The notes beneath the pieces are model-generated. The model was not told the DNA's origin. It was given only the letters and a program-made list of their open reading frames with translations, and searched no databases. A program made the translations under genes and the position numbers. Positions 2,147-6,046 of a stretch of 31,064 nucleotides of DNA are shown piece by piece (within the stretch, counting starts at the first letter, position 1; every line of letters begins with the position of its first letter). Source of the stretch: a virus; the UHGV virus genome UHGV-0851987. The stretch is one strand, 5' to 3'.

Positions 2147-2806
2147 TTAACTAAATGTCTCTTCAGGCCACTGGCTGGCGATAACTTTCCCTACAACGGA
2201 ACAGCTATCATTGCATGGGATCATTGGATATTGCGGGTTTAGTGGTTGTAGGAACACCTGACCGCTATCCCTGATCAGTTTCTTGAAAGTAAACTCGTCA
2301 CCACCAAGTCTGGCTATGCAGAAATCACCTGGCTCAACAGCCTGCTCAGGGTCAACGAGAATTAACATCCCGTCAGGAAAGCTTGGCTTGGATCCTGTTG
2401 GTGCGGTCATGGAATTACCTTCAACTTCAAGCCAGAACGCACAATCACTGGCTTTTTTGGTTGTGCTGACCCATCTCTCCGCATCACCTTTGGTAAAGGT
2501 TCTAAGCTCAGGCGAGAACATCCCGGCCTGAACATGAGAAAAAACAGGGTACTCATATTGTTTTTTAACGGGGATAGATGAGTATTCGCCAACAGGTGAA
2601 AATGTACCGTCGTGGTTGAATGAGACGCTATCAATACCAAGGTATTTAAACACCACACCAATCTCGTCAAGAGATGGATGACGAGATCCGCGCAACCAGT
2701 GACCAATTCCACCCTGCGTCATACCAAGCTCTTCAGCCAACTTCTCTTGAGTTATGCCGAGCTCTTTCATTCTGGATCTAGCCAGTTCATACCATTTCAT
2801 TTTCAT
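2147..2806 (-). CDS. cI: CI-type prophage repressor: HTH DNA-binding domain plus LexA-like S24 autopeptidase domain (hybrid)
   Basis: The C-terminal roughly 130 aa ([18 protein letters not shown] ... [69 protein letters not shown] ... [11 protein letters not shown]) matches my recollection of lambda CI almost exactly. The N-terminal HTH domain ([38 protein letters not shown]) is unrelated to lambda CI. Start chosen at MKMKW (ATG 2804-2806); the alternative is the second Met at 2798-2800. Confidence 0.9.
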
Positions 2807-2917
2807 ACCCTTATTATTACGCTCTGTACTAAAACCATCCATGCACAAGATGTATTTTTTGTTTGCATTTCAAAAGTACATATCGTATTATTATCTCATG
2901 GTTACTATGGAGGGCAT
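2807..2917. promoter_or_regulatory. OR region: divergent pRM/pR promoters and operators
   Basis: pR: -35 TTGCAT (2863-2868), 17-nt spacer, -10 TATTAT (2886-2891), GGAGG RBS (2909-2913). The spacer contains AGTAC-N5-GTATT, a near copy of the pL palindrome. A roughly 35-bp module is shared between pR and pL. The pRM elements themselves are not confidently placed. Confidence 0.6.
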
Positions 2918-3133
2918 ATGAGCAACCTACGAAAATATCGAGAGTCACTGAATATCTCTCAAACAACACTTGCTAAGGCGGTTGGATGCACACAGGGAGC
3001 TATTGGGCATTGGGAATCTGGTCGTCGCTTCCCAGACCTTAAAACATGCCGCGCTCTTGTTGCATGCCTAAACAAGTTAGGCGCAAAAGTCAGTCTTGAT
3101 GACGTGTTCCCTCCGGAACACAAAGCCGCTTAA
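2918..3133 (+). CDS. cro: Cro-like HTH repressor (71 aa)
   Basis: ATG at 2918 preceded by GGAGGG. The protein MSNLRKYRESLNISQTTLAKAVGCTQGAIGHWESGRRFPD has an XRE-type HTH, and its recognition-helix motif TQG-IGHW--G-R-P is shared with the CI N-domain. The track ORF 2678..3133 is an upstream over-extension. Confidence 0.8.
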   Translation: MSNLRKYRESLNISQTTLAKAVGCTQGAIGHWESGRRFPDLKTCRALVACLNKLGAKVSLDDVFPPEHKAA

Positions 3134-3141
3134 GACATTCC

Positions 3142-3173
3142 AGCTCTTACACATTCCAGCCCTGAAAAAGGGC
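3142..3173 (+). promoter_or_regulatory. nutR site (boxA plus boxB)
   Basis: AGCTCTTACA (boxA-like, 3142-3151), spacer CATTCCAG, then GCCCTGAAAAAGGGC (boxB, 3159-3173). Matches lambda nutR as I recall it. Confidence 0.85.
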
Positions 3174-3239
3174 ATCCAATTAAACCACACCTATGGTGTA
3201 TGCATTTATTTGCATACATTCAATCAATTGTTATCTAAG

Positions 3240-3276
3240 GAAATACTTACATATGGTTCGTGCAAACAAACGCAAC
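3240..3276 (-). promoter_or_regulatory. PRE-like promoter with CII-binding TTGC-N6-TTGC repeats
   Basis: Minus strand reads TTGCGTTTGTTTGC (complement of 3262-3275), overlapping the first codons of cII as in lambda PRE. Confidence 0.55.
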
Positions 3277-3549
3277 GAGGCTCTACGAATCGAGAGTGCG
3301 TTGCTTAACAAAATCGCAATGCTTGGAACTGAGAAGACAGCGGAAGCTGTGGGCGTTGATAAGTCGCAGATCAGCAGGTGGAAGAGGGACTGGATTCCAA
3401 AGTTCTCAATGCTGCTTGCTGTTCTTGAATGGGGTGTTGTCGACGACGACATGGCTCGATTGGCACGACAAGTTGCTTCGATTCTCACCAATAAAAAACG
3501 CCCGGTGTGCAAGACCGAGCGTTCTGAACAAATCCAGATGGAGTTCTGA
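3253..3549 (+). CDS. cII: Transcriptional activator CII (lambda type)
   Basis: Translation from ATG 3253 is [84 protein letters not shown]...[10 protein letters not shown], close to my recollection of lambda CII. The track ORF 3193..3549 is over-extended. Confidence 0.95.
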
Positions 3550-3606
3550 GGTCATTACTGGATCTATCAACAGGAATAATTATGACAAAACAACTCAGTC
3601 CTTACC
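3528..3606 (-). ncRNA. OOP-like antisense RNA with its terminator at the 3' end of cII (approximate bounds)
   Basis: Minus-strand hairpin (arms at 3531-3536 and 3559-3564) followed by UUGUUC. The 3' terminal sequence of cII and the following bases are lambda-like, where the OOP terminator lies. The 5' end and pO promoter are not precisely located. Confidence 0.4.
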
Positions 3607-3728
3607 AGGACAAAATTCACAAACACATACTACGTGATCGCTTCCTGTCCAGCTTCAAGCAGCCTGGTCGATTCCGGGCTGAGTTGGAAAAGGTGAAGCT
3701 GATGCAGAAGGAGAAAGGTCATGAGTAA
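3582..3728 (+). CDS. Small ORF (48 aa) between cII and the replication initiator
   Basis: ATG at 3582 with AGGA upstream; translation [48 protein letters not shown]. Below the track size cutoff. It overlaps the start of the initiator by 8 nt. P22 carries an 'orf48' at the same position as I recall. Confidence 0.4.
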
Positions 3729-4620
3729 CATATCTAATCTAGCCGAAGCCAGAGAGGCCAGAAGGCTACAACAACCGCATCAAAGCAGCGGTAAGGGGTA
3801 TGCCTTGCTGCACCGTAAAATTATGGATGTGCCGTTTTACAAGGACGCAGAAGCTGCGCATCTGTGGATTCACTTAATCCTCAAAGCAAAGCATACGCCT
3901 GAGTATGTAATGACTGACGCAGGAGAAATTCTGGTAGGCAGAGGGAAGCTACTTGGCGGTAGAAACTCTCTGGCGTTTGAAACAGGACTCAAACCAGATC
4001 GCGTTCAGTACCTGCTTAGAAAGTTCAAAAAACTCGGCATGATTGACTGGGTTTCACACGGTAAATTTTCAGTTTTCTCGGTAGAGAAATATGACGATTA
4101 TCAGTCAAATTTTGTACCAGCAGATTACCAGCAAATTACCACCTCAAAGCCAGCAATACCAATGCCTGTAAGCAATACTGTACCAGCAGATTACCAGCAA
4201 ATTACCACAGATAAAGAATATAATAATATTATCTCTAATACTGACGTATTAGAGAGTGCCACAGCAGACAAAAAGTCTGACAAGAAAAAACCTTCCGTCA
4301 GCTGTCAGGATGTTGTCGATGCTTACCACGAAATCCTTCCTGAAGCGCCAAGAATCCGCGCACTGAATGACAAGCGTAAAAACCAGATCCGAACGTTCTG
4401 GCGCAAAGCCGGAGTGATAACCCGCCAGCTTGACGGGCATGGGTTCACGATGCAGGACTGGAGAAATTATTTGAGCTACGTAGGCGAAAATTGCCGATGG
4501 ATGTTCGAAGAACGCCCAAACCATCAACGCGGAACCGTCTGGCACAAAAAGGGATTTGATTTCCTGCTTAACGACAATACCTACCTGAAAGTTCGTGAGG
4601 GTGAACACGATGACCGATAA
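3721..4620 (+). CDS. Replication initiation protein (O-like replisome organizer)
   Basis: ORF in track with RBS GGAGAAAGG before the ATG at 3721. It sits immediately upstream of, and overlaps, the helicase gene. The origin-like iterons lie inside the coding sequence. Confidence 0.85.
4114..4245 (+). repeat. Putative replication origin: two 29-bp direct repeats (iterons) plus AT-rich tract
   Basis: GTACCAGCAGATTACCAGCAAATTACCAC occurs at 4114-4142 and again at 4180-4208, each with an internal ATTACC sub-repeat. Followed by AGATAAAGAATATAATAATATTATCTCTAATA. The arrangement parallels ori-lambda inside gene O. Confidence 0.6.
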
Positions 4621-6046
4621 TTTTTATGCGCCGCCCCATAGCATCGAGGCAGAGCAGGCGGTGATTGGTGGATTGCTTCTGGATGATGACAGCAGTGAGC
4701 GCGTCCAGAAAGTTCTGGCGATGCTGAAGCCTGATTCATTTTACAGCCGACCACACAAAATCCTTTTCGAAGAAATAACCAGAATGCACCGGGAGCAAAA
4801 GCCAGTAGATGGCCTGACGCTTTTCGATGAACTGGAGCGTAAATCGTTAACGGCGTCTGTTGGCGGTTTTGCTTATATCGCTGAGATCGCAAAGAACACG
4901 CCAAGCGCAGCAAACATCGTTGCCTATGCAATGCAGGTTCGTGAAACCGCAATGGAACGCTACGCCATCAACCGCATGACTGAAGCGACGGAATTGCTCT
5001 ATTCCCGCAACGGAATGACTGCAACGCAGAAGTACGAAGCTATTCAGTCGATTTTCACGCAACTGACAGACCATGCAAAAACCGGATCGCGTCGCGGCCT
5101 TCGCTCATTTGGTGAGGTCATGGAAGACTGGGTTAGCGACCTTGAGAAGCGATTTGACCCGTCAGGCGAACAACGAGGAATGAGCACAGGGATCCCATCG
5201 CTGGACAGGATGCTGTCACCGAAAGGTCTGGTGAAAGGCTCTCTGTTTGTCATTGGCGCTCGCCCTAAGATGGGGAAAACGACGCTATACAGCCAGATGG
5301 CAATCAACTGCGCAGTGCATGAGAAAAAGCCCGCTCTGATGTTCAGCCTTGAAATGCCCGGTGACCAGATACTGGAAAAACTGGTAGGGCAGAAGTCAGG
5401 TGTTAACCCAAATATTTTTTACCTTCCAGCGACAAATGACGCTGATGACGGCTATCAGGGTGATTACGATGGTGACTTCAACAGGGCGATCGAAACAGCA
5501 AATCGCTTGAGTGAAATCGACCTGCTTTACATCGACGACACGCCGGGATTATCTCTGGCTCAAATCGTCAGTGAAAGCCGTCGAATCAAGCGAGAAAAAG
5601 GATGTGTTGGCATGATTCTGGTCGATTACCTGACACTAATGACCGCTGAGAAGGCCGATCGCAACGACCTTGCTTACGGCATGATCACCAAAGGACTGAA
5701 GAATCTTGCCAAAGAGCTTGATTGCGTTGTTGTGCTTCTGACACAGCTTAACCGCGCACTGGAAAGCCGAACCAATAAACGCCCATTACCAAGTGACTCA
5801 CGAGATACAGGGCAGATTGAACAGGATTGCGATTATTGGGTGGGGATCCATCGTGAAGGTGCTTTTGATGACAGCGTTCCTCCTGGTGAAACCGAACTAA
5901 TCCTTCGCCTCAATCGTCATGGCAATACCGGCACGGTGTATTGCATTCAGGCAAATGGCGCTATTTATGACACAGACCAACAGTCTGCTGAAATGCGCCG
6001 CCGTGAACGCGAGGAACCGCAGTCCAAGAAGAAAGGAGGATTCTGA
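4610..6046 (+). CDS. Replicative DNA helicase, DnaB family
   Basis: DnaB N-terminal domain (HSIEAEQAVIGGLLLD), Walker A GARPKMGKTT and DnaB-type C-terminal motifs. Start at ATG 4610 after GAGGG; the track start at 4595 is a short over-extension. Confidence 0.9.
   Translation: MTDNFYAPPHSIEAEQAVIGGLLLDDDSSERVQKVLAMLKPDSFYSRPHKILFEEITRMHREQKPVDGLTLFDELERKSLTASVGGFAYIAEIAKNTPSAANIVAYAMQVRETAMERYAINRMTEATELLYSRNGMTATQKYEAIQSIFTQLTDHAKTGSRRGLRSFGEVMEDWVSDLEKRFDPSGEQRGMSTGIPSLDRMLSPKGLVKGSLFVIGARPKMGKTTLYSQMAINCAVHEKKPALMFSLEMPGDQILEKLVGQKSGVNPNIFYLPATNDADDGYQGDYDGDFNRAIETANRLSEIDLLYIDDTPGLSLAQIVSESRRIKREKGCVGMILVDYLTLMTAEKADRNDLAYGMITKGLKNLAKELDCVVVLLTQLNRALESRTNKRPLPSDSRDTGQIEQDCDYWVGIHREGAFDDSVPPGETELILRLNRHGNTGTVYCIQANGAIYDTDQQSAEMRRREREEPQSKKKGGF

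Follow-up and report, generated by a model that had tools for sequence, protein, structure and literature searches.

The window analyzed here, a 31,064-nucleotide stretch of the virus genome UHGV-0851987, comes from a lambdoid phage that resembles Sf6 and HK620 and whose morphogenesis genes are P22-like; over the first 25 kb of the window, Sf6 gives 78% coverage at 95% identity. The genes N, cI, cro, cII (positions 3193-3549) and orf48/DUF2740 (3582-3728) are followed by an O-like gene and by the gene of a DnaB-type helicase. The O-like gene (3721-4620, plus strand) codes for a replication initiator of 299 amino acids, which matches PHROG 345 (“replication initiation O-like”) at 3.9e-87; the gene is 98% identical to the O genes of VT2-Sakai, HK022 and HK620. 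The downstream gene, P (4610-6046, plus strand), codes for a phage DnaB-type replicative helicase (Pfam DnaB, 3.4e-31; DnaB_C, 2.8e-60). Its start, which we placed by homology to HK022 P, overlaps the end of the O-like gene by 11 nt.

A search with the initiator returned 1420 protein matches, and those listed are 99% identical to it. The N-terminal domain (amino acids 1-128, ending in ...KYDDYQ) is encoded by positions 3721-4104 of the plus strand and is 42-99% identical across phage homologues; its family has 4338 representatives at E ≤ 1e-3. Weak or transitive Pfam matches suggest that this is an origin-binding winged-helix domain of the “replisome organiser” type. Phage_rep_org_N is matched by 9 of 50 family representatives (best, 1.1e-5), the window protein itself staying below the threshold at E = 0.18, and relatives of the domain also match assorted winged-helix families, with single matches to Phage_rep_O, DnaD_N and RepL. 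PHROG families described as “DnaD-like helicase loader” match the initiator at 3.7e-21 and weaker. NCBIfam gave no match, a search of PDB sequences with the N-terminal profile returned nothing meaningful, and an AlphaFold model built from the single initiator sequence was discarded because of its pLDDT of 42. The C-terminal part of the initiator (4256-4617, plus strand) is a putative helicase-recruiting module, whose type matches the downstream partner gene. No similarity between the initiator and lambda O was detected by BLASTP, by an HMM of 50 sequences or by hhalign (0.2% probability). The window protein did not match Pfam Phage_rep_O (PF04492) even at E ≤ 1, and one of 50 distant relatives matched this family at 0.0017. 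The two proteins thus show no sequence homology detectable by these procedures, and they may be very remote kin.

The first-pass annotation of the window had pointed to two perfect 29-bp direct repeats, 66 bp apart, within the initiator coding sequence, and both were recovered. The sequence GTACCAGCAGATTACCAGCAAATTACCAC occurs exactly twice, at 4114-4142 and 4180-4208, with 66 bp from start to start; by chance, about 1.7e-9 pairs of identical 29-mers would be expected in a sequence of 31 kb. With the preceding T, the iteron repeat is 30 nt long, and the two iteron blocks (plus strand) occupy 4113-4142 and 4179-4208, with a 36-bp spacer (4143-4178) between them. The internal ATTACC half-repeats reported earlier were not what we found; instead, each copy is built of three 11-bp units in direct orientation, which have TACCA as their core. 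In block 1 the cores lie at 4115-4119, 4126-4130 and 4137-4141, and in block 2 at 4181-4185, 4192-4196 and 4203-4207, i.e., the six TACCA sites stand at offsets 0/11/22/66/77/88. Neither the repeat finder nor reading of the 30-mer revealed an inverted repeat or dyad within the iteron blocks. Within the window, the 11-mer TACCAGCARAT is matched exactly four times, each time inside the origin element. When one mismatch is allowed, there are 8 matches in the window, with 1.15 expected, and none of 100 shuffled sequences reaches 8. One more TACCA, at 4157-4161 in the spacer, was not counted as a site, being out of phase and not conserved in HK022.

The two repeat copies, offset by 22 codons, specify one and the same decapeptide (amino acids 132-141 and 154-163 of the 299-residue product of ORF 3721-4620), as had been noticed before. 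One can therefore ask whether the repeat is merely a duplicated peptide in a flexible protein linker, with no function at the DNA level; the coding region concerned does lie between two folded domains. Within a block, however, the three 11-bp units are read in three different codon frames, since 11 is not a multiple of 3, and a periodicity read in three frames cannot be a by-product of a peptide repeat.

Immediately downstream of the repeats the composition of the DNA changes. The tract of about 35 bp described as AT-rich in the first-pass annotation was confirmed at 4209-4245, where the GC content is 19%, compared to 47% in the whole window; in the core of this tract, 4209-4231, it is 8.7%. 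This 23-bp core is a candidate DNA unwinding element. No DnaA box with up to one mismatch was found in the region 3700-4700, no IHF consensus in 3900-4400 and no GATC near the origin element; Rfam gave no match within 2800-5000. The AT-rich core is followed by a perfect palindrome, TCTCTAATAC-TGAC-GTATTAGAGA, which was identified by the repeat finder at 4232-4255 and has 10-bp arms and a 4-nt center. The order of parts in the initiator gene is, thus, repeats, AT-rich tract and palindrome. The element had originally been delimited as 4114-4245; the end at 4245 cuts through the palindrome, which is part of the element and forms its right-hand portion.

For comparative analysis, a homologue set was compiled from seven diverged phage homologues and 51 loci from bacterial assemblies (one genome per species), and 52 enterobacterial genes, that of the window included, were analyzed. 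Six nnnCCA cores at offsets 0/11/22/66/77/88, all in the same codon frame, are present in 50 of the 52 loci. The array starts 9 nt past ...KYDDYQ, the end of the N-terminal domain, in 49 of these 50 and at +33 in the remaining one (L134). The two exceptions, L112 and L113, have 12-bp units arranged according to the same two-triplet plan. Across the 52 loci, the six cores are alike within each genome and differ between lineages. The core TTACCAGC is found in the window, HK022, Enterobacter adelaidei and Pantoea sp. 1.19, TGTCCAAC in ST64T (where it matches the phage L repeat) and HK106, and GTGCCAAC in Klebsiella, Erwinia, Yersinia and others; further classes are TGTCCAGC, TTCCCAGA and AATCCAA. 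Such concerted change, with cores alike within a genome and altered between lineages, is the pattern expected when sites and a trans-acting binder evolve together. The 30 nt past the last core are 73-87% A+T in all 52 loci.

The plan extends beyond the enterobacteria. In distant relatives from Spongiibacteraceae, Elusimicrobiales, Bacteroidia, Glaciecola and Prevotella contigs, 11- or 12-bp arrays directly follow the domain and are themselves followed by A+T-rich sequence. In 149 sequences, each representing a cluster at 50% identity, the most frequent spacings of exact peptide repeats just past the domain are 11 amino acids (33 nt) and 22 amino acids (66 nt). Both the retention of 11-bp arrays in distant relatives and the uniformity of the units inside a genome, as against encoded peptides that vary greatly from lineage to lineage, argue against a mere peptide duplication. 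This explanation is disfavored, and we regard it as scarcely credible.

Polymorphism among close relatives was examined in a sample obtained by scanning IMG/VR with the O protein, which comprises 81 genes 97-100% identical to that of the window (67 distinct sequences). The first-pass annotation had named absence of the repeats from close homologues as an outcome that would speak against an origin. In fact, both repeats are present, in the same layout, in all 80 close relatives, and single-base variants are rare. In the 81 genes, 5 of the 60 positions of the iteron blocks vary, as do 7 of the 36 spacer positions and 3 of the 47 that make up the AT-rich tract and palindrome. The spacer is the most variable segment in close relatives, and between lineages its sequence is not conserved. 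The direction of these differences is compatible with constraint on the iterons, the iteron-spacer contrast being small.

The palindrome is as widespread as the cores. All 52 loci have a perfect stem of 9-10 bp with the center T[A/G]A[C/A], in 21 distinct sequences, beginning 12-27 nt past the last core. In an alignment of 31 distinct 32-mers, the inner nine stem pairs are Watson-Crick in 279 of 279 cells; double-sided changes occur at every inner pair and wobble at none. The covariation score is 0.829, compared to 0.194 for shuffled alignments, none of 500 of which reaches the observed value, and registers slid along the alignment score 0.08-0.19. When folded as single-stranded DNA, the palindrome region has an energy of -8.9 kcal/mol (z = -4.95). 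The compensatory changes alter the encoded peptide, which indicates that selection acts on the nucleic acid, and they, too, are at odds with a function confined to the protein linker.

Since covariation alone does not separate RNA structure from DNA structure, we considered whether the palindrome (4232-4255 only), together with a T-rich run on the minus strand, could be an intrinsic terminator or an RNA hairpin, acting on leftward transcripts or in the O mRNA, rather than an origin element made of DNA. A terminator scan did return this site as weakly terminator-like, with 10 pairs at 4255-4232 of the minus strand followed by TAATATTATT. However, the stem of this candidate has just 3 G-C pairs, the U-tract is poor, and Rfam has no match at the palindrome. 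The lack of any G-T or G-U wobble in the 279 inner-pair cells (21 distinct hairpins) would be surprising in an RNA stem and is predicted if pairing is needed in both DNA strands; it favors a dyad or hairpin at the DNA level. In addition, lambda has an analogous palindrome, TCAGAGAATTC-TGGC-GAATCCTCTGA, at the same place relative to its own AT-rich tract. A terminator or RNA hairpin is therefore, in our judgment, very unlikely. We found no description of the palindrome signature (21 variants, 279/279 Watson-Crick pairs, no wobble) in the searchable literature.

We next asked which part of the initiator the iterons follow. Core identity is correlated with N-terminal identity (Mantel r = 0.66, not reached in any of 2000 permutations), although much of this covariation could result from linkage alone, since the iterons start 9 nt past the N-terminal coding region; there is no correlation with C-terminal identity (r = 0.07, p = 0.07). 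In 23 pairs of loci with N-terminal identity of at least 80% and C-terminal identity below 40%, cores are shared at 0.97. Conversely, in seven pairs with C-terminal identity of at least 90% and N-terminal identity below 60%, they are shared at the background level of 0.56. HK106 illustrates the latter situation: its C-terminal half is identical to that of the window protein, identity in the N-terminal domain is 48%, and the cores read TGTCCAACG.

The C-terminal part, in turn, agrees with the downstream partner gene in 50 of 50 typed loci. Where the C-terminus is of the HK022 type, the gene that follows codes for a DnaB-type helicase (44 of 44 loci); where it is 52-70% identical to lambda O, the gene that follows is of the lambda-P type (6 of 6). 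Iteron classes occur across both C-terminal/partner groups. The O protein of Erwinia phage 59 is a natural chimera, in which an HK022-like N-terminus and iterons are joined to a C-terminus 70% identical to lambda O, and a lambda-P-like gene follows. As judged from sequence comparisons, these data support a modular organization, in which the N-terminal domain and the iterons would account for origin recognition and the C-terminal domain for recruitment of the partner.

The element is already known and has been annotated since about 2000. Megablast retrieved 227 phage records, with about 98% identity to VT2-Sakai, Stx1 and Stx2 phages, mEp235, HK022 and HK620; over 1.2 kb, identity is 97.9-98.3%. 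In the VT2-Sakai record (AP000422.1), two misc_binding features, “ori iteron 1” and “ori iteron 2”, described as bound by O, correspond exactly to 4113-4142 and 4179-4208 of the window. The HK620 record (AF335538.1) has a two-piece rep_origin within nucleotides 393-488 of the gene, whose first and second pieces are the same bases as iteron blocks 1 and 2. These GenBank annotations appear to have been made by analogy. The O-gene origins of HK620, VT2-Sakai and HK022 are the same element as that of the window (DNA 98% identical): the two 30-bp repeats recur at gene nucleotides 393-422 and 459-488, and the AT-rich tract and palindrome are also the same. The differences are trivial: in HK022, the opening unit of block 2 reads TCCCA where the window has TACCA, and the spacer contains two changes. 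A search of the literature for direct experiments on this origin type (cloned-origin replication, footprinting, binding, origin mapping) found none.

For phage L, six imprecise 11-bp repeats, TGTCCAACGGA, have been described in gene 18 as the likely origin (Zaworski et al. 2021, PMC8022706). The gene 18 origins of phage L and ST64T share with the window the 0/11/22/66/77/88 layout, the frame, the position in the gene, the AT-rich tract and the palindrome; the C-terminal domains are 94% identical, and a DnaB-type helicase gene is located downstream in both cases. The cores, on the other hand, are TGTCCAACG in phage L and ST64T and TTACCAGCA in the window, and the N-terminal domains are just 57-58% identical; with both the core and the N-terminal domain different, a different origin specificity is predicted. 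The label “P22-type” was rejected for the ST64T-type gene 18: P22 gene 18 contains four repeats of about 20 bp, and P22 gp18 is just 25% identical to L gp18 (PMC8022706).

The earlier note had likened the element to ori-lambda inside gene O, and the likeness is real with respect to position and order of parts. Each is situated centrally within an initiator gene that comes after cII in the pR operon, and in both the binding repeats are followed by an AT-rich tract and then by a palindrome. The likeness does not extend to the type of iteron or to sequence homology with lambda O. Lambda has four 18-bp iterons with hyphenated dyads, to each of which an O dimer binds, and its AT-rich region measures 39 bp; lambda O binds DNA through its N-terminal part and P through its C-terminal part (PMC6022878). 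The iterons of the window, two triplets of direct 11-bp units, are unlike the four dyads of lambda. Since the units are direct repeats without a dyad, the dimer-per-iteron mode of lambda is not simply transferable. The partners differ as well: the window codes for a phage DnaB-type helicase, whereas lambda P is a loader of host DnaB. Both initiators would nevertheless be two-domain proteins, DNA-binding at the N-terminus and partner-binding at the C-terminus, and Erwinia phage 59 indicates that the C-terminal module is interchangeable in nature between initiators of the window type and lambda O.

In SPP1, the origin oriL lies inside gene 38 and combines direct repeats with an AT-rich unwinding element; gp38 is the origin-binding replisome organiser, gp40 is a DnaB-family helicase, and replication has been reconstituted in vitro (PMC6316719). 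SPP1 and the window have in common an origin inside the gene of the origin-binding protein, direct repeats next to an AT-rich element and a phage-encoded helicase of the DnaB family. SPP1 differs in having a separate helicase loader, gp39, a second origin, oriR, and a Gram-positive host. Origins of iteron plasmids (R6K, RK2, pPS10, F and P1) also consist of direct, helically phased repeats served by their own initiator and of an AT-rich unwinding element. Plasmid iterons are 17-22 bp long, are located outside the rep gene, are usually accompanied by DnaA boxes and control copy number by handcuffing. The window element resembles them in its direct phased repeats and AT-rich element and differs in having neither a DnaA box nor an IHF site nearby.

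We conclude that the element is very probably the replication origin of an Sf6/HK620-like lambdoid phage, located where the gene for its own initiator codes for the linker, in the middle. The proposal that this is an iteron-type origin with a specificity unlike that of lambda gains support from its position, the order of its parts and the comparative evidence. From these observations we infer binding, unwinding, helicase loading and stoichiometry at the origin as follows. The winged-helix N-terminal domain of the O-like protein would bind six TACCA-core sites, arranged as two head-to-tail triplets with 11-bp spacing. With this spacing, and with triplet starts 66 bp (6 × 11 bp) apart, the six sites should face roughly the same side of the helix, and an O-some-like complex could assemble there. 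The stress imposed by the complex, together with pR transcription through the site, would open the adjacent 23-bp tract. The C-terminal domain of the initiator would then recruit the phage's own DnaB-type helicase, encoded immediately downstream. The palindrome would mark the right edge of the origin and might be extruded as a hairpin.

More speculatively, the palindrome may be a structure-specific origin element, i.e., a DNA hairpin or cruciform that is extruded upon unwinding and positions helicase entry or priming, perhaps throughout the family, whichever partner (DnaB-type helicase or lambda-P-type loader) is used. In the same tentative scheme, the initiator would bind the 11-bp units as an array, head to tail and in helical phase, and not as lambda-style dimers on dyads. 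We put this forward as a possibility that is less likely to be right than wrong.

As the expected origin of a replication module that is very common in E. coli and Salmonella prophages and is carried by Stx phages, HK022, HK620 and mEp235, the element has little weight as a discovery. Earlier annotations mark two 30-bp iterons and neither the six 11-bp units nor the palindrome, and what is added here are refinements, namely the grammar of six units and how widely the family shares it, the modular relation between domains and partner, and the covariation of the palindrome. The grammar (nnnCCA at 0/11/22/66/77/88, beginning 9 nt past ...KYDDYQ, then the AT-rich tract and a palindrome with the center T[A/G]A[C/A]) can be used to find the origin and to predict classes of replicon specificity within the initiator family. 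Its practical value lies in annotation and engineering, and the natural domain swaps offer a ready design for finding the residues that read the core. The palindrome covariation is the sole feature that could repay experiment.

The evidence presented here concerns sites that co-evolve with the N-terminal domain rather than initiation itself. The repeats could, accordingly, be initiator-binding sites with a mainly regulatory role (they might titrate O, let it regulate itself, serve in handcuffing or exclude related phages), and replication would then start elsewhere in the genome. There are precedents for parts of such a scheme: the SPP1 initiator binds a second origin elsewhere (PMC6316719), and plasmid-borne lambda iterons can inhibit phage replication (PMC3349717). 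However, the sites always have an AT-rich tract and a conserved palindrome directly after them, which is the layout of an unwinding element, and the 31-kb window contains no other exact copies of the 11-bp unit. We consider a mainly regulatory role unlikely and retain the interpretation of the element as the origin. In phages L and P22, moreover, whole replication modules are exchangeable, but single genes are not (PMC8022706), which argues that the origin lies within the module.

A perfect palindrome (4232-4255) adjoins the AT-rich tract of the origin within the initiator gene, and palindromes occupy the homologous positions of L083-L136, the homologous loci of related phages and bacterial assemblies. 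As can be seen from the comparison of 52 loci, the structure of this element is kept in 52 of 52 cases while its sequence is not, there being 21 sequence variants. Of the 279 cells that the inner nine pairs contribute, all 279 are Watson-Crick and none is a wobble pair; at the centre, the homologous loci read T[A/G]A[C/A]. No mention of the palindrome was found in earlier annotations or in the literature examined.

The palindrome also borders the junction in a set of natural chimeric initiators, that of Erwinia phage vB_EhrS_59 (L087, 1186-2136) and those of L110, L114, L115, L124 and L136, in which the exchange point lies directly past it. The front part of these proteins consists of an HK022/L-type N-terminal domain, with 11-bp iterons in the gene, and the C-terminus is 52-70% identical to lambda O. 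In every chimera, the downstream gene encodes a lambda-P-type loader and not a DnaB-type helicase. The arrangement of the iterons varies as well. Units of 12 bp replace the 11-bp ones in L112 and L113 (Silvania, Leclercia), L139 (a Glaciecola MAG) and L140 (Prevotella), the last of which carries nine 12-bp units in tandem. In place of the two triplets, L135, L137 and L138 have one array in which an 11-bp GAACAAC unit occurs about five times.

The start of the helicase gene and the end of the initiator gene of the window overlap by 11 nt (4610-4620), as they likewise do in HK022 and ST64T, an arrangement compatible with translational coupling of initiator and helicase. An antisense ORF of 119 aa (4249-4608, minus strand) lies entirely within the O gene; its counterpart is annotated as hypothetical "ORF b66" in the Stx1 phage record AP005153.1, and the ORF has probably been called in error. 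An oop-like antisense RNA locus was also observed (3495-3525, minus strand, and 3557-3589), with a strong terminator-like hairpin and T-run on the minus strand within the 3′ end of cII and with ACTGGATCTATCAACAGGAATAATTATGACAAA, a near-match to the conserved 33-bp oop promoter/5′ region (PMC3349717). An Rfam scan of 2800-5000 returned no match for this locus.

A search for relatives of the initiator N-terminal domain retrieved P0132, a protein of 3097 aa in which 15 separate stretches match the helix-turn-helix region (residues 64-96) of the domain; it is either a relative with an unusual, repetitive build or an artefact. E. coli-phage-type O genes were also found in assemblies of unrelated taxa. 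A 386-bp contig of Xanthomonas pisi (L100) is 99% identical to the N-terminal domain of the window, and contig NODE_1 of Chryseobacterium sp. 18061 (L125) matches HK106 in the iteron blocks, AT tract and palindrome. Both assemblies look likely to be contaminated or mislabelled.
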